IMG/VR virus record: IMGVR_UViG_3300043774_000656
Coordinates: 32,001 to 96,000 of that record
Source: a virus
Strand: one strand, 5' to 3'
DNA length: 64,000 nt
This document shows, in pieces, positions 31,131 through 61,603 of this stretch. The position numbers and the translations under genes are program-made. Under the pieces are notes generated by a model, which had not been told where the DNA came from, searched no databases, and saw only the letters and a list, made by a program, of their open reading frames with translations. Positions within the stretch are counted from its first letter, which is position 1; each line of letters begins with the position of its first letter.

Positions 31131-32523
31131 ACATCATAAAATAAAGTTCATGCTTAGGTCGGGTAATAGCAACGTAATGTACATTCATAGACTCTTGGTC
31201 CTCAACATCACCTGGGTCAAATGAAACACTCTTAAGTTCCTTTTCATCTAGTTCAAGACCATTATGTTGTATGATGTCAGGTGAAATTGAATTGACTACA
31301 ACACAGGTTGGAAACTCTCGACCTTTGCTCTTGTGAATGGTAGTAATGAAAGTTTTGCTCTCACTGTTCTCGTCTATAAACTGTATCAGCTCACTACCTT
31401 TACCAAAATCTGGCAAGATTCTTTTAAGCTTCCTGTTTAACTGAGGTGTCACACCTTCCTTTTTTCTAATAACATCTAGTTCATCTTTTGTAAAAACGTT
31501 CTGATACTTCATAGGTATCTTTTTAAGCAGGAACTTTTCTTCAAGACTTCTGATAACACTATTTGTTCTGGCCAATATCACAACCTCTTTCTTCTTCATT
31601 AACTTAAGAAGTTCATTTTCATCTATAAGATTCATGTGTACTTTACCTGGCTTATCAGAATGTGCCACTGCTTCAAGCGAACTGTAAGAGTTAGAATGCT
31701 CTACAATATTATAATCTGATCTGAAGTTTTTAGACAGACTGTACTCAACTGTAGTCTTATCTTGCTTAAGTAGCTTTTCAATCATATCACAATTAGAACC
31801 AGAGAAAGCGTATATGCTTTGGTTACGATCACCGATAAGATGGTAGATTTTTGCTTTAAGCTTTAGTAGGATCTTAAGCTGAAGTGCTGAAGTGTCCTGA
31901 TACTCATCGACGAACACATAATCATATCGCTTATGCATCTCATCATCCCAAGTTTTACTATCAGTAAGACGTAGTGTTTCAACCAGCATGTCAGTAAAGT
32001 CTCTACTGCCTGTCTGCTTCAGAAACCTAGTGTATTCAATAAAGAAATCTGGTAGCCTAGACTTTACGTTCTCCTGTTGAAGCATCTTATACTTAGAAAT
32101 TTGTGAGCTGCAGTATTCGGGCTCTCTTTCTAGCTTTTCAACTCTGCGCTTAAACGCAATCTTCTCATCAATCCTAGCCTTATTACCAGGTGAACAATTC
32201 TTTTTATACCAGTTTATGAAATGGTGGAAGTCTGCGGTCTTCTTAAACTTTCTACATTTAGCCAGGGTTGAAAGACAAAATGAATGTATCGTCGTGATAT
32301 TAACCCTAGGGTTTTTTATACGATTCCTCAATTCATTTACTGCGTCATTAGTAAAGCTAAAAAAGATTATCCGTTCTGGTTTAACGCCTTGTTCTAAAAG
32401 CCAAACCAGTCTACCTGCAGCAGACGCTGTTTTACCTGAACCTGCAGTTGCTGTGAGTATCACAGACTCTGGTCCATTGTGTGTAATAAACTTAAATTGT
32501 TCCTCTGTAAATTTTGAAGCCAT
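31108..32523 (-). CDS. UvrD/Rep-like SF1 helicase
   Basis: ATAGSGKT, TIHSF, VDEYQD, GDRNQSIY, NFRS, TIHKSKGREF, YVAITR. Confidence 0.92.
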   Translation of the reverse strand: MASKFTEEQFKFITHNGPESVILTATAGSGKTASAAGRLVWLLEQGVKPERIIFFSFTNDAVNELRNRIKNPRVNITTIHSFCLSTLAKCRKFKKTADFHHFINWYKKNCSPGNKARIDEKIAFKRRVEKLEREPEYCSSQISKYKMLQQENVKSRLPDFFIEYTRFLKQTGSRDFTDMLVETLRLTDSKTWDDEMHKRYDYVFVDEYQDTSALQLKILLKLKAKIYHLIGDRNQSIYAFSGSNCDMIEKLLKQDKTTVEYSLSKNFRSDYNIVEHSNSYSSLEAVAHSDKPGKVHMNLIDENELLKLMKKKEVVILARTNSVIRSLEEKFLLKKIPMKYQNVFTKDELDVIRKKEGVTPQLNRKLKRILPDFGKGSELIQFIDENSESKTFITTIHKSKGREFPTCVVVNSISPDIIQHNGLELDEKELKSVSFDPGDVEDQESMNVHYVAITRPKHELYFMMYDTKNID

Positions 32524-51773: not shown

Positions 51774-52715
51774 TCAGATTTGTTCTTCATCAACTTCTGC
51801 ATTCTCAGCAACAGCTTCTTCTTCTGTATTTGCAAATATCTTATCCCATGCATCGGCATCTTTCTTCAACTCTTCCATTTCCTGATCAAGACGCTTTCTG
51901 TTCTCTTCTTCTTGAATAAAGCGTTCAGCATGATACAGTACATCACCTTCTGCAGCAAGGCTGAAATACATTTTCTTGTATACATCACCTCTTCGGTTCT
52001 TAGTAAACATCAGATAACGTTCTTGACCACCTTCTTCTGTAAAGCGTATTTCAAGCATACCTGTAGTATTGTGCTTCAGCTTGTTTGAACCAACGAAATT
52101 ACCACCTTTAGTTACTTGCTGAATCATCAAAAAGCTGGTGTAGCTGTTACCTTTGTTTTCACCATTGTTATGCTTAAGCATCAGGTCAATCAACCATTTC
52201 TCTGCAGAACCTGTTGTCATACCAGCAGTTTCTTTCACGGCGTCTTGTATCTCTACAAATGAGTCGCCAAGTACGATATCATAGCCACGGTCAAGTACTT
52301 GTTCAACTACCAGCTTGCAGTTCTCATCGGTGTACTCACCTAAGAACAAGATATCAATGTTGCCGAATTTTGGATAGCGCTGCATGTACTGGTACATATC
52401 TACACGTGACATTTCACCGCTAATGAACAGAACCTTTTCCTTCTGTTTCTTAATATCTGATATGATATCAAGACAGACTGTAGACTTACCAACACCTGGA
52501 TCACCGATGACGATGTAGTTGGTAGCACGAGGTATACCACCTTGGTTGCTGAATAGTTTATCGATGGCCTTGCCGCCTGACATTGACTCAAATACACGTT
52601 TGTCAAACTTGACCTTGCTGAGTTGAACCAACTCTACATTCTTTGTTAAAGTCTTACTGACAGTAACTTCTGCTTTTGTTTTTGTTGCGCGTTTGCGATT
52701 TCTTACTCTTGCCAT
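51774..52715 (-). CDS. RadA/Sms-like RecA-family ATPase (no Zn finger or Lon domain)
   Basis: GDPGVGKST, FISGE, GDSF, QVTKGG..GSNKLKH, KNRRG (cf. RadA KNRFG). Confidence 0.8.
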   Translation of the reverse strand: MARVRNRKRATKTKAEVTVSKTLTKNVELVQLSKVKFDKRVFESMSGGKAIDKLFSNQGGIPRATNYIVIGDPGVGKSTVCLDIISDIKKQKEKVLFISGEMSRVDMYQYMQRYPKFGNIDILFLGEYTDENCKLVVEQVLDRGYDIVLGDSFVEIQDAVKETAGMTTGSAEKWLIDLMLKHNNGENKGNSYTSFLMIQQVTKGGNFVGSNKLKHNTTGMLEIRFTEEGGQERYLMFTKNRRGDVYKKMYFSLAAEGDVLYHAERFIQEEENRKRLDQEMEELKKDADAWDKIFANTEEEAVAENAEVDEEQI

Positions 52716-52740
52716 TGTTGTATGATTGATGATTATGGTG

Positions 52741-52771
52741 TAAATATACTATGAAAAGTTGGAAAGTGAAA
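52741..52771 (-). promoter_or_regulatory. early promoter
   Basis: TTTC-N19-TATATTTA. Confidence 0.75.
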
Positions 52772-52787
52772 GTCTTTTGCAGTTTTC

Positions 52788-53195
52788 TTAGAAAGACATT
52801 TTAAAGATATCACTCATAGTATCAGCAACAGCAATTGCACCTTGGAAGTCATTCTGTCTTCCCCATACTTCTGCTTTTCCAGAATGACCAGATTTAGGTG
52901 TCACTGACCAGATCACGTCACCTGTTTCACGATCACAGATGCGAAAATCGTCATACAATGGCCCATTCATAGGACAGTTATTCTTAAAGAAGACATAGCA
53001 CTTGTCAGTATCAGTGTTTCTGAACTTGACCCAACGTTTAACCTGTTTCATCAACTTAATTGACTTACGTTCAAGTGAAGAGTCTTTGCAGAACCAGTCA
53101 TAGAAGTTATAGCAATCGTTGCTGCGACCTTCATTGTCAATGATGTTGCCGTTTTCGAATGCTTCAAGTTGTTTTGTAAGTGATACGCTTTTCAT
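52788..53195 (-). CDS. hypothetical early protein
   Basis: start MKSVSL after promoter leader; FYDWFC, FFKNNCP..LYDDFRICD. Confidence 0.75.
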   Translation of the reverse strand: MKSVSLTKQLEAFENGNIIDNEGRSNDCYNFYDWFCKDSSLERKSIKLMKQVKRWVKFRNTDTDKCYVFFKNNCPMNGPLYDDFRICDRETGDVIWSVTPKSGHSGKAEVWGRQNDFQGAIAVADTMSDIFKMSF

Positions 53196-53219
53196 GTTGA
53201 TTGTTTTAATGTTATGGTG

Positions 53220-53250
53220 TAAATATAACAAGGATCGGTTGAAGTTGAAA
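53220..53250 (-). promoter_or_regulatory. early promoter
   Basis: TTTC-N19-TATATTTA. Confidence 0.75.
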
Positions 53251-53266
53251 GTTATTTGCTGCTTTC

Positions 53267-53407
53267 TTAGTAGTCAGAAACTCTAAACTTAGTTCTGCCA
53301 TCTTTGATTTGCTGCTTTCGCTTTTTATTCTCAATAGTACGTTGACGAAAACGACCATCAAAAAAGCCTTGCTGCTTTGCAGATTCTCTGTTTTGGCCCT
53401 TGGCCAT
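53267..53407 (-). CDS. 46-aa basic protein, candidate ArfA-like ribosome rescue factor (not in ORF track)
   Basis: MAKGQNRESAKQQGFFDGRFRQRTIENKKRKQQIKDGRTKFRVSDY; gapless resemblance to recalled E. coli ArfA KGQ..[15 protein letters not shown]. Confidence 0.5.
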   Translation of the reverse strand: MAKGQNRESAKQQGFFDGRFRQRTIENKKRKQQIKDGRTKFRVSDY

Positions 53408-53420
53408 CTTGAATAGTTTA

Positions 53421-53783
53421 TCAGATACCGTCATAGTGGTAGTATTTATTTAGTATTACAATTGTCGGCAAATCGTTTCCAGCATCATCTGTTTCAAAAT
53501 ACCAGTCGTCACCTCCTTCCAGTTCACAGAAGATAGAACCATACGTATGATTGTCAAAGTTCTCAGTTATCATATAGGCTTCATTTTCGAATTGACTGAA
53601 GGTCAAGCTTCTGCCATCGCTATTGTCGTTGACGCATTCTGCATTGTTGCCAAGCTCGTAGTTGGTGCCTGCTTCGTCGTTTAAGACTCCAATCAAGTCT
53701 TCAGTACTTAGGTTAGACAGATAGTCATCAACTCTAGTTTTTGCCATAGATAGGCTGTGATGTTCTTGTTTCCAGGTACTCAT
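53421..53783 (-). CDS. hypothetical acidic early protein
   Basis: probable start MSTWKQ at 53783. Confidence 0.65.
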   Translation of the reverse strand: MSTWKQEHHSLSMAKTRVDDYLSNLSTEDLIGVLNDEAGTNYELGNNAECVNDNSDGRSLTFSQFENEAYMITENFDNHTYGSIFCELEGGDDWYFETDDAGNDLPTIVILNKYYHYDGI

Positions 53784-53784
53784 A

Positions 53785-54081
53785 TTATTTACTGTTTTTG
53801 GTTGGTTGATATTCGTCTCTAAATATGAACATGAACAGGTAACCACGATCTTCGTCCCAGTCACAGTCTGTTGTAACATATTTCCAGATCTCACTATCTT
53901 CTGGAACGTTGATTTTTCGCCAGTAATCGTAGCGCAGATATCGAGTTTCGAAGCGTTGCTGATATTCATTCCAGTCTCCGCCTCTGAACTGTATTTCGTT
54001 TTGATCGTGGCCAGTAGCAATCAGCAAGTCTTCAATCTTCTGTTCTACTGGATTCTGTGGTTGTTCGTTTTCTAATCGCAT
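53785..54081 (-). CDS. hypothetical early protein
   Basis: start MRLENE after promoter leader. Confidence 0.7.
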   Translation of the reverse strand: MRLENEQPQNPVEQKIEDLLIATGHDQNEIQFRGGDWNEYQQRFETRYLRYDYWRKINVPEDSEIWKYVTTDCDWDEDRGYLFMFIFRDEYQPTKNSK

Positions 54082-54100
54082 ATTGTTAATTGTTATGGTG

Positions 54101-54131
54101 TAAATATACAATGAAAGTTTGATACCCCAAA
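54101..54131 (-). promoter_or_regulatory. early promoter
   Basis: TTTG-N19-TATATTTA. Confidence 0.8.
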
Positions 54132-54156
54132 GAAAAAAACGAAAAAAACAGCAAAA

Positions 54157-54189
54157 GGGCTAACTTACTGAAAATCAGCAGGTTAGCCC
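54157..54189. repeat. palindromic box GGGCTAAC..CTGA-AAA-TCAG..GTTAGCCC (hairpin, terminator or protein site)
   Basis: inverted repeat read directly; same core as other intergenic boxes. Confidence 0.6.
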
Positions 54190-54211
54190 TAAGCTATTCA
54201 CAATCAACAAT

Positions 54212-55120
54212 TTAGCAATTTATGTTCAACTTCAACTCCTCAGAAGTCATCCATTCTGTATATGCCTCGTAATTTTCACCATACTCTTCTGACATAAAAT
54301 CTTCAATATCTTTACTCAATACCTTGTGTACGTTTACTGTACTTTCAAAAAAGTTTAGAACTGTCAGATACACTTTATGGCAATCACAATCTTCATCGTC
54401 TTCTTCAAGACCATCAGCAAGTGTATGCCACCAGGGGTTGCCATACATTTCTGACCATACTGTACCTAGAAAATTATCAAGTTCTGGGTACTCTTCAAGT
54501 TCAAAGCCATTGTCATGCATCCAGATCGCTAGGTCTTCAGCACAGTCTTTATGTATAATATGAATTTCAATTTCTTCAGCATTGACTGGAACTGCAAGTA
54601 CACCGATTTTGCGAAGATCAATACATGCCTTAATAATATCAATACATTGAAAGGTTGCCAATGCCTCACCTGGTTGTGGAGCATTTTTATTGCTGTTAAC
54701 CTTTTCTGCTTCTTCTATCAACTCAAACTTCAGCTTGCTGATATTGATACAACTGTTAATCATGTCTTGCCATTGTTGCCGTGTCTTACCCTTATATTGA
54801 GATTTGCGGCTACGTGTTTCATAATTCCACTCACCGTAACCAAGAGCAAAGTTGACAACTCCAAGATCCAACCATTCAGGTGCATGACCAAGAACCTTCC
54901 ATTCTCCTCGTTTTACATTCTGTAAAAAACCAAGACGACTAAGGTACGTTTGATATGTACGAGTACGATAGGCCTCGTTTTTGTTGATTCGTTTCCACCA
55001 GGTAACTTCTTCTACACCACGTGTGGCATTTACAAGTTCTGATGATTTGTAGGTACTGCCGACTGGTATTGCATTAATGAAGTCGACTACAGTTGAAAAT
55101 AAAGATCCGTCTTTACGCAT
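54212..55120 (-). CDS. hypothetical early protein (possible N-terminal winged helix)
   Basis: 302-aa ORF after promoter; YLSRLGFLQNVKRGEW. Confidence 0.7.
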   Translation of the reverse strand: MRKDGSLFSTVVDFINAIPVGSTYKSSELVNATRGVEEVTWWKRINKNEAYRTRTYQTYLSRLGFLQNVKRGEWKVLGHAPEWLDLGVVNFALGYGEWNYETRSRKSQYKGKTRQQWQDMINSCINISKLKFELIEEAEKVNSNKNAPQPGEALATFQCIDIIKACIDLRKIGVLAVPVNAEEIEIHIIHKDCAEDLAIWMHDNGFELEEYPELDNFLGTVWSEMYGNPWWHTLADGLEEDDEDCDCHKVYLTVLNFFESTVNVHKVLSKDIEDFMSEEYGENYEAYTEWMTSEELKLNINC

Positions 55121-55146
55121 GTTGATTATGTTTTATTGTTATAGGG

Positions 55147-55177
55147 TAAATATAACCTAAAGATTGTAGTTATGAAA
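55147..55177 (-). promoter_or_regulatory. early promoter
   Basis: TTTC-N19-TATATTTA. Confidence 0.75.
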
Positions 55178-55200
55178 GTAAGTTGCTGCTTTCTTGAAAA

Positions 55201-55626
55201 TTAGATTGCTGCAATTTCTGAACAGTCTTTGATGTACTTCAAACGATCTGTTGCTGAATATTCACCATTCACGTAGATCCAGTTGCCGTCTACTGTATAA
55301 AGATAGCCCCATTCTTCAACGTCGCTGGTCAAATACTCATCAATACTGGCATGCTGAATTTGCATAAAGTCTTCGCCACGATCTCGGTGATAGGCTACAG
55401 TTACACCTTCTTCAGGGTTGCTGAAGTCGTGTGCACCTTCTGGAAATACAAATTCATGTAGAGAACTAATAGAACCCAGGTCAATCAGCTGTTGTACCTT
55501 TTCACGGTGTTGATAGTTTTCAGCAAGTGTCTTGCCGTTGCCTTGAGGATAACCGTCCCAGTGACAGTAGATAGAGGTTACAGTACCATCTGCATTTTCA
55601 ATTCCAATTCTAGAGCGAGTTGCCAT
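55201..55626 (-). CDS. conserved phage early protein (YCHWDGYP family)
   Basis: MATRSRIG..SIYCHWDGYP..AYHRDRGE. Confidence 0.75.
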   Translation of the reverse strand: MATRSRIGIENADGTVTSIYCHWDGYPQGNGKTLAENYQHREKVQQLIDLGSISSLHEFVFPEGAHDFSNPEEGVTVAYHRDRGEDFMQIQHASIDEYLTSDVEEWGYLYTVDGNWIYVNGEYSATDRLKYIKDCSEIAAI

Positions 55627-55652
55627 GTTGATTATGTTTTAATGTTATGGTG

Positions 55653-55683
55653 TAAATATACCTTGAATGGTTCAGAATAAAAA
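55653..55683 (-). promoter_or_regulatory. early promoter
   Basis: TTTT-N19-TATATTTA. Confidence 0.7.
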
Positions 55684-55710
55684 GCGTTTTGCTGTTTATC
55701 TTATTTAGTA

Positions 55711-55950
55711 TCAGTCAAACCAGAGGACGTCAAAGATCTCCCTCTCTTCCACATCCGATTCCTTCACCTCGCACCAGTACTCCTCATTGACCTCATCGAA
55801 CTCATATGATACAAAATCTTCATCTGTGAAAAACTCGTCTTGGATCTCGTTGTATCTCTTTTTAAGCTCACTGATCAGCGCAATGGTTTTCTCGTCTTTT
55901 TGGAATTTCTCCTTGAACCCAAGGAGCTTCTCGATTAGATCTTCTTTCAT
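55711..55950 (-). CDS. very acidic small early protein
   Basis: D/E-rich 79 aa. Confidence 0.7.
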   Translation of the reverse strand: MKEDLIEKLLGFKEKFQKDEKTIALISELKKRYNEIQDEFFTDEDFVSYEFDEVNEEYWCEVKESDVEEREIFDVLWFD

Positions 55951-55974
55951 AGTGTATGTTTTAATGTTATGGTG

Positions 55975-56005
55975 TAAATATACAATGACTTATTGAAAGA
56001 TAAAA
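55975..56005 (-). promoter_or_regulatory. early promoter
   Basis: TTTT-N19-TATATTTA. Confidence 0.7.
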
Positions 56006-56235: not shown

Positions 56236-56253
56236 AGTGTGATTGTTATGGTG

Positions 56254-56284
56254 TAAATATAACCCAACCCTATCAGAAGCCAAA
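56254..56284 (-). promoter_or_regulatory. early promoter
   Basis: TTTG-N19-TATATTTA. Confidence 0.75.
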
Positions 56285-58703: not shown

Positions 58704-58721
58704 TTGTTGATTGTTATGGTG

Positions 58722-58752
58722 TAAATATACAATGACTGCAGCAGAATCCAAA
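58722..58752 (-). promoter_or_regulatory. early promoter
   Basis: TTTG-N19-TATATTTA. Confidence 0.8.
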
Positions 58753-59939: not shown

Positions 59940-59957
59940 TTGTTGATTGTTATGGTG

Positions 59958-59988
59958 TAAATATACAATGATTGATTCAGAATAAAAA
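59958..59988 (-). promoter_or_regulatory. early promoter
   Basis: TTTT-N19-TATATTTA. Confidence 0.75.
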
Positions 59989-61554: not shown

Positions 61555-61585
61555 TTTGGCCAGAACAAATGTCATTGTATATTTA
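61555..61585 (+). promoter_or_regulatory. early promoter (rightward of divergent pair)
   Basis: TTTG-N19-TATATTTA-CACCATAACAATC. Confidence 0.8.
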
Positions 61586-61603
61586 CACCATAACAATCAG
61601 CAA

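Follow-up and report, generated by a model that had tools for sequence, protein, structure and literature searches.

A 64,000-nt window (positions 32,001 to 96,000) of the IMG/VR virus record IMGVR_UViG_3300043774_000656 carries on its minus strand a gene for a protein of 55 residues. We identify this protein as a phage copy of a family of small basic proteins, found in Bacteroidota and their phages, that share a GF[YF]DGRF block. It may be related at a distance to the ribosome rescue factor ArfA, or at least resemble it closely in mechanism, a reading that we put just short of an even chance. For the family as a whole, a divergent ArfA-like rescue factor is the best reading, with the scales about level. 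The family is not a member of Pfam ArfA. A preliminary description, made from the letters of the window alone, had proposed an ArfA-type factor at this place. The similarity found at the level of the family and the anti-correlation of the family with the rescue factor ArfB speak for that proposal, while the Pfam match and the Y, RK and KH positions of the tail fail to appear in the window protein.

The 55-residue gene

The open reading frame (ORF) and the start that had been assigned to it are the following.

53267..53434, minus strand, 55-residue gene (ORF with homologues), GF[YF]DGRF family member and candidate ArfA-like factor
53405..53407, minus strand, internal ATG, start given in the preliminary description (46 residues), probably not the true start

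The frame ends in a TAA stop at 53267-53269 and is open upstream of the internal ATG, to an ATG at 53434, which gives 55 residues with the N-terminus MTVSDKLFKMAKGQ. Four close homologues in a collection of 5.8 billion proteins are 55-56 residues long and 80-91% identical, and all of them have the nine-residue extension; T2, S4 and L7-F8-K9-M10 are invariant among the four, and a KLF.MAK-type N-terminus is kept by remote relatives too. Because the nine extra residues are kept in all four close homologues, the true product is most likely the 55-residue protein starting at 53434. The peptide of the preliminary description is encoded on the minus strand at 53407..53267, and its start codon at 53407 is probably not the one used, since the homologues keep residues 1-9. 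Its argument that 46 residues is a length like that of truncated ArfA falls as well, being built on the wrong start codon.

The 55-residue ORF is a real, conserved gene. That it is unexpressed in this phage, or a decaying remnant, we consider highly improbable: the frame is intact and 80-91% identical to same-length homologues from other samples, a DNA run of another sample differs within the ORF at two positions (53327 and 53375), both synonymous as we read them, and the gene has an operon-like position with a translationally coupled start. What could be said for a remnant is that its tail diverges from most of the family, and that the sole metatranscriptome with part of the stretch (X18) has no contig over the ORF, from which we draw no conclusion about expression. 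X18 does contain a 272-nt contig, with one mismatch, over 52899-53158, in the next gene downstream; it may come from RNA of such a phage or from contaminating DNA in the library. Two other runs (X19, X20) are probably DNA.

Database searches with the single protein find little. No close relative was found among GenBank phages by megablast of 52000-56000 or by tblastn of the protein, nor in an IMG/VR scan with the protein as single query. NCBIfam at E<=10 gives no match for the window protein or two of its homologues, and the one PHROG match is weak and pairs residues 2-27 with an unannotated family. AlphaFold2 run on the family alignment predicts helices at 3-21, 24-28 and 37-48 (mean pLDDT 76, pTM 0.35).

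The GF[YF]DGRF family

An exhaustive phmmer search of 1.84 billion representatives yields 19 remote relatives of 49-76 residues, and a profile search extends the family to 1,628 clusters at E<=1e-3. We located 36 family loci in IMG/VR and 50 in species-representative genomes; of the latter, 48 are labelled Bacteroidota, one Oscillospiraceae and one unclassified uncultured bacterium. The typical member has 50-60 residues, with a basic N-terminus, a predicted helix, a near-invariant R...GF[YF]DGRF block and a Lys/Arg tail, directly after which the protein stops. Almost every member goes by "hypothetical protein" in the databases, but JGI has annotated one (P0246) as "stalled ribosome alternative rescue factor ArfA". 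In the ESM Atlas, the named clusters that come closest are DUF7230 (0.88) and one of ArfA (0.87), which serve as leads only.

Similarity to ArfA

BLASTP of the window protein against E. coli K-12 ArfA gives 13 of 33 residues identical without gaps (E 2e-5, as a single comparison). When the protein is run by phmmer against 177,635 distinct PDB sequences, all six matches are E. coli ArfA chains, with E-values of 0.2-0.45 that are non-significant; they place residues 8-42 on ArfA 4-38, again ungapped. The gapless alignment given in the preliminary description is therefore genuine, and the direct resemblance between the two sequences is real, yet not significant as a database search.

The stretch closest to E. 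coli ArfA is FRQR..NKK of the window protein. Its F29-R-Q-R aligns with ArfA F25-R-Q-R, the RF2-docking segment, which is a correspondence of sequence only. As described in passages of PMC8012679, ArfA F25 and Q27-E30 dock on release factor 2 (RF2) and the C-terminus sits in the mRNA entry channel; its KH motif binds a pocket of that channel and is the sole motif common to ArfA and BrfA. In the GF[YF]DGRF family, F29 is near-invariant, 188 of 189 tails have R or K at +3 from it, and the KK is kept. Conservation of the FRxR and NKK elements, a point on which the preliminary description leaned, thus holds in the form F..[RK] and KK. Its KGQ element is not conserved, as LGR or KGR stands there already among the close homologues. 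In the short helix 15-24 of ArfA, A18 lines up with Q22 in the window protein, a position taken by Q, A, D or S across the family.

The similarity is also seen when whole alignments are compared. With hhalign, the 61-sequence family alignment (A4) aligns to 21 enterobacterial ArfA over 40 columns, with probability 69.1% and P 4.4e-5, and the sole gap, of three columns, falls at the GKG of ArfA. Against 18 diverse ArfA (alignment A6) the probability is 63.1% and P 7e-5, over 45 columns. A6, which is not a systematic sample, takes its genes from 10 PLSDB proteobacterial replicons and 7 phages, the ArfA of phage Y3 being left out as identical to the one of P. aeruginosa. The real hhalign scores of 25.8-27.6 compare with maxima of 18.8 over 200 column shuffles of ArfA and 16.3 over 200 column shuffles of the family, and with 9.3 for the reversed alignment.

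In a decoy test, we ran unfiltered hidden Markov model (HMM) searches over 7,505 small ORFs, taken in six frames from the window and from the loci retrieved for this analysis; 92 of them are family ORFs. For the HMM built from the 18 ArfA, ranks 1-34 are all family ORFs, and the window ORF is found at rank 25 with 11 bits (E 0.11). The first decoy appears at rank 17 for an HMM of the 11 cellular ArfA and at rank 31 for an HMM without the protein of Pseudoalteromonas phage J2-1. With the full HMM, 42 of 78 family proteins score above the 99th percentile of 3,900 residue shuffles; for the cellular-only HMM the number is 17 of 78. Similarity of profiles, the check proposed with the preliminary description, is thus found by hhalign and by the ArfA HMMs in the decoy test; it is not found at the HMMER level with Pfam or by running the family profiles against PDB.

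The tail carries the clearest common pattern. Counting from the conserved F, the 189 distinct tails have KK at +8/+9 (164 tails), Y or F at +11 (107), R at +13 (110), K at +14 (134) and KH at +16/+17 (100). E. coli ArfA reads F25...K33K34[GKG]S Y39.R41K42.K44H45, and removing its GKG gives the family spacing at all seven positions. When A6 is aligned to A4, the place of the ArfA KGKGS is taken by KKRKQQ in the window protein and by KK.Y. in most of the family. In the KGKGS[YF] block of the 18 diverse ArfA, K34, G35 and G37 are near-invariant; R41 is invariant.

The J2-1 protein, which is annotated as ArfA and scores 41.3 bits on the Pfam ArfA model (PF03889), carries the same three-residue deletion and in its tail is identical to the family member P0254 at 14 of 19 positions (E 1e-7). 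Similarly, P0246 and a Pseudoalteromonas ArfA are identical at 12 of 21 positions with a three-residue gap. The J2-1 protein also passes DUF7230 (PF23876), a family of unknown function, with 28.6 bits for a cut-off of 27. DUF7230 matches 37 of the 170 scanned family members (8 of 61 and 29 of 109), in the tail only and at DUF7230 positions of about 15-37; none of them reaches the gathering threshold of 27 bits, the best having 26.0-26.2, and the window protein gives no match. We found no publications on DUF7230.

Distribution of the family and of ArfB

ArfB was detected with the NCBIfam model NF006718 at E<=1e-10. Of 301 Bacteroidota genomes sampled, 166 have it, but not one of the five that are family-bearing. 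It is also present in 2 of 30 further family-bearing genomes that were reached through family loci. One sample at the family level of taxonomy has ArfB in 0 of 4 family-bearing against 33 of 77 family-negative genomes (P 0.14); three of those four genomes are new to the pooled count, and none has ArfB. Pooled, ArfB occurs in 2 of the 38 genomes with the family and in 166 of the 296 Bacteroidota genomes without it (Fisher P 3e-10). The family-bearing genomes have labels from several orders. RF2 is present in five of five that were tested for it, and RF1 together with RF2 in all that were checked.

A complex prediction for the RF2 of one genome (G001) with a family member from the same genome (A7, A8) gave 0.30 for a mark of 0.32, without controls, and is not evidence either way. 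Another family-bearing genome (G155) has a third ORF with an RF-1 domain at C5:102147-102422 (86 bits), in an open frame of 206 residues. NF006718 does not pick it up at E<=1e-10, and its product may be of PrfH type or another protein with GGQ.

Evidence against, and alternative readings

Several observations weigh against an ArfA-like factor, and we collect them here. The first concern the profiles. The gathering threshold of PF03889 is 25.5 bits, and all 12 proteobacterial and phage ArfA proteins used as positive controls pass the model. It matches none of 170 distinct family proteins (0 of 61 and 0 of 109), the window protein included; the scans had E limits of 10 for the 61-member set, 0.5 for the 109-member set and 0.05 in one further scan, and E<=1 and E<=10 for the window protein. 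Nor is anything found by PF03889 across the whole phage record. Family profiles run against PDB at E<=10 do not retrieve ArfA, and therefore the signal does not grow at the HMMER level; their best matches are the RuBisCO small subunit and SAMHD1, plainly by chance. The hhalign probability goes down from 69 to 63 with the more diverse ArfA profile, and a P of about 5e-5 would equal an E of about 1 in an all-Pfam search. The cellular-only ArfA HMM gives the window ORF 4 bits and rank 39, and with this HMM no family protein beats the best shuffle.

Other points come from individual residues. The KGKGS block, the most conserved of ArfA, is absent from the window protein and the family, and the functionally critical A18 is replaced by Q22 in the window protein. 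Among the most conserved residues of the family (R16, G23, F24, D26, G27 and R28), D26 alone has an ArfA counterpart (D22). The window tail KKRKQQIKDGRTKFRVSDY is basic and keeps the KK; the Y, RK and KH positions are missing, and there is no histidine in it. A hairpin within the ORF, as in arfA, was not found, the best in the window having -8.3 kcal/mol versus -28.1 kcal/mol for E. coli arfA (-66..-16). The remaining points are about the distribution. The family is rare: it turned up in 5 of the 301 Bacteroidota genomes, in 3 of 151 genomes sampled from a single order and in 4 of 81 from a group at the family level, and many genomes have neither ArfB nor the family. The family-bearing genomes are all metagenome-assembled genomes (MAGs), and the anti-correlation with ArfB is uncorrected for phylogeny or completeness.

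These results bear on two alternatives. The first is that the family is unrelated to ArfA and has arrived at short Lys/Arg-rich motifs by convergence, its members being DNA or RNA binders, small regulators or adaptors, which we regard as rather unlikely. Significance is marginal throughout (E 0.2 in PDB, hhalign below 70%, no Pfam ArfA match), the best PDB matches of the family profile are clearly due to chance, the genomic contexts are heterogeneous (polA, tig/oxyR, a retron-type reverse transcriptase), and ArfA was chosen for comparison after the resemblance had been noticed. An unrelated family is, however, hard to square with the column and residue shuffles, which keep composition and are still exceeded, or with seven motif positions that come into register after a single indel, one that is also present in a bona fide phage ArfA. 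The anti-correlation with ArfB and the JGI and ESM Atlas labels are independent of the alignment, and they argue against it too.

The second alternative, unlikely as well although less so than convergence, is that the basic tail attaches the protein to the ribosome or to rRNA, much like the tail of ArfA, and that no release factor is recruited. The protein would then plug the mRNA channel, modulate translation or serve as a factor of the hibernation type; for instance, it could act jointly with EF-G2 in starvation, and the phage could use it to bias or silence host translation. The tail, which is the part of ArfA that binds the channel, is where the similarity is best supported; the RF2-contacting helix is replaced by the GF[YF]DGRF block and A18 is not kept; and at 10 of the 50 genome loci a gene for EF-G2 is a neighbour of the family gene, on the opposite strand and no more than about 4 kb upstream. 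Yet the F25 and R.R strand of ArfA, described as RF2-docking in passages of PMC8012679, align with F29 and the [RK] at +3, and a distribution that avoids ArfB (2 of 38 versus 166 of 296) is expected of a rescue factor and not of an inhibitor.

Proposed role

An ArfA-like factor, the reading we prefer, would act as follows, by analogy with ArfA. When a ribosome has stalled on a broken mRNA, at its 3' end, the basic C-terminal tail would probe the mRNA entry channel, which is then empty. The GFFDGRF-RQR segment in the middle of the protein, aligned to a stretch of ArfA, would sit at the decoding centre and recruit a class-I release factor, presumably RF2, and the recruited release factor would hydrolyse the peptidyl-tRNA. 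The benefit to the phage could be that host ribosomes stay available while its own shut-off nucleases or the defence RNases of the host cut mRNAs. What the analysis shows is a conserved gene, its family, the similarity to ArfA in sequence and profile, and the anti-correlation with ArfB; ribosome binding, recruitment of a release factor, timing of expression and benefit to the phage are inferred.

In a broader and more tentative version, Bacteroidota would have in this family the release-factor-dependent rescue factor that they seemed to lack, either a descendant of ArfA or its convergent twin, which replaces ArfB in the lineages that carry it and which freshwater Bacteroidota phages have captured to keep ribosomes running while mRNAs are destroyed in shut-off or by defence RNases. 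The tail without KH in the window protein could then be a phage-specific adaptation, for example one that contacts the channel differently or prefers another release factor. If true, ArfA-type rescue would extend beyond Proteobacteria, the GKG loop and the helix would be shown to be replaceable parts of ArfA, and ribosome rescue would join the translation functions carried by phages of several phyla. The family offers a concrete candidate in Bacteroidota, with about 1,600 natural variants, a distribution complementary to that of ArfB, and phage-borne copies. Rescue systems have been discussed as antibiotic targets.

Comparison with known rescue factors

ArfA (PF03889; YhdL in E. coli) and the GF[YF]DGRF family are alike in size, as the active form of ArfA has about 55 residues. 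Many members of both have a basic N-terminus, and both have a basic tail, with a conserved F followed by R.R/K, KK at +8/+9 and, in most family members, Y.RK.KH in register. Unlike ArfA, the family falls below the Pfam threshold, has lost KGKGS through a three-residue deletion, and has GF[YF]DGRF in place of the central helix. It is also without the regulatory hairpin and the hydrophobic C-terminal extension of ArfA. The window copy departs further, in having no Y, RK or KH. The hosts differ, with ArfA in beta- and gamma-proteobacteria and the family in Bacteroidota. In the part of the survey PMC11633108 that covers 1,956 genomes of the Fibrobacterota-Chlorobiota-Bacteroidota (FCB) group, zeros stand in the columns that we read as ArfA and BrfA.

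Phage-borne ArfA is already known, being annotated in several phages of Proteobacteria, and a Bacteroidota version would be new. We confirmed seven phage proteins above the PF03889 threshold, one of them mis-annotated as ribosomal protein L2. Phage ArfA genes are found in Pseudoalteromonas phage J2-1, Salmonella phage Arash, Pseudomonas phage pf16, Citromicrobium phage RXM and pelagiphage HTVC027P (gp30). For gp30, the relevant passages of PMC12753301 describe a protein that carries PF03889, is called ArfA and is transcribed early and late. Like the window gene, the phage ArfA genes are small, belong to large lytic phages, lie amid small unknown genes and have no regulatory C-terminal extension. 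The window protein differs from them, as they pass PF03889 at 25.7-72.5 bits and come from phages with proteobacterial hosts. A search of IMG/VR with enterobacterial ArfA patterns found no relative; these patterns were too narrow, and the phage ArfA were found by tblastn. The literature that we searched on phage-encoded ArfA and ribosome rescue yielded no Bacteroidota factor, with no search pairing Bacteroidota with rescue-factor terms. The mis-annotated protein is gp99c of Salmonella phage Arash (L106:1417-1641), named "ribosomal protein L2", of which the C-terminal 54 residues score 69 bits on Pfam ArfA. It is probably a phage ArfA, and it adjoins a tRNA cluster.

BrfA of Bacillus and ArfT of Francisella can be likened to the family by description, as small, lineage-restricted and release-factor-dependent proteins with basic tails. 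According to passages of PMC8012679, BrfA shares only KH with ArfA, and therefore such factors diverge beyond recognition; the same source holds that more small rescue proteins that recruit a release factor probably exist and are hard to detect by sequence. PMC8012679 also describes ArfA and BrfA systems as specific to their species. BrfA is made from non-stop mRNA, and no such sign was found when the family was examined for hairpins. The strongest family hairpins are mostly ordinary terminators that follow or straddle the stop. At six loci (L032, L078, L079, L081, L045 and L084), a hairpin resembling a terminator has the stop codon in its loop or its 5' arm. Transcripts of this kind would end a few bases past the stop, which comes near to a non-stop design and is not one.

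ArfB is a back-up of tmRNA, a role that the family would share with it, and its distribution is complementary to that of the family. It differs in having a GGQ hydrolase domain of its own, in its length of about 140 residues and in having no sequence relation to the family.

Genomic neighbourhood of the family

We considered whether the genome copies are borne by prophages, and this is ruled out by their annotated neighbours, which are ordinary chromosomal genes. Among them are polA directly downstream, tig/oxyR/ahpC, xerD/aroQ/gldK and a retron-type reverse transcriptase. The loci linked to EF-G2, at distances of about 0.2-3.5 kb, are L038, L051, L057, L066, L067, L074, L076, L085, L086 and L087, and EF-G2 is above the NCBIfam cut-off in L067 and L076. 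The subfamily with LQRKLA.QQGFYDGRF keeps the Bacteroidota EF-G2 paralogue as its divergent neighbour. This adjacency may be inherited synteny or a functional link to translation in starvation; as a link to a translation factor, it also counts in favour of the ArfA-like reading. The retron-type reverse transcriptase lies directly downstream of the family gene in a MAG labelled Chitinophaga (L064:4542-6221), and it matches the model of a TIR anti-phage reverse transcriptase with E 4e-74, below the cut-off of that model. Three MAGs have several family matches: G315 has three, G312 has two, and L047 has a tandem pair of near-identical genes (1626-1757 and 2088-2249).

The cassette and the surrounding phage

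The 55-residue gene is preceded by two other genes, and the three are bracketed by two exact copies of a promoter-like motif. The features are as follows.

54093..54108, minus strand, promoter-like motif TATATTTACACCATAA, exact copy upstream of the three-gene cassette
53785..54081, minus strand, first gene of the cassette, about 98 residues from the ATG of MRLENEQ..., no family assigned
53421..53783, minus strand, second gene of the cassette, 120 residues, no family assigned
53212..53227, minus strand, next exact copy of TATATTTACACCATAA, 40 nt past the stop of the 55-residue gene, boundary between the cassette and the unit that follows (gene 52788..53195)
52788..53195, gene downstream of the cassette, 135 residues, no family

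The start of the first gene was placed from the position of the promoter-like motif, within a longer ORF that starts with TTG. The 55-residue gene begins 14 nt before the upstream gene 53421..53783 ends, an overlap of the sort that translationally coupled genes typically show. The anatomy bears out the claim that the gene is the last of a promoter cassette. In the window, TATATTTACACCATAA has 21 sites at up to 3 mismatches, for 1.95 expected, and none of 100 shuffles reached 21. It resembles what we take to be the -7 box of Bacteroidota promoters, TAnnTTTG.

The sites of this 16-mer span 29836-63855 of the window and lie ahead of many small genes. Examples on the minus strand are 52733-52748, 53212-53227, 54093-54108, 55645-55660, 55967-55982, 56246-56261, 58714-58729 and 59950-59965, and one on the plus strand is 61578-61593. 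The orientation switches near 61.5 kb, which suggests a divergent block of transcription units of small genes. Between 50 and 57 kb, the genes with a recognizable family are a 313-residue P-loop ATPase of the KaiC/DnaB/RecA type (51774-52715) and a 141-residue protein of PHROG 1987 (55201-55626; E 1.7e-32, function unknown); the others match no family.

The virus record of which the window is part has 123 kb. Its genes are of myovirus type and include baseplate, sheath and tail fibre genes, a DNA ligase, a thymidylate synthase and a dCMP deaminase. The GC content is 37%, and no tRNA or tmRNA genes were found in the window. CheckV gives the record (G000) a completeness of 45%, and a homologue of the 55-residue protein with 87% identity (P0003) is carried on a contig of 222,815 bp; therefore the phage may be of jumbo size. 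The phage or near-identical relatives occur in DNA runs labelled lake, freshwater and estuary, with at least half of the sampled words present in 17 runs, one of which is possibly the source of the window DNA.

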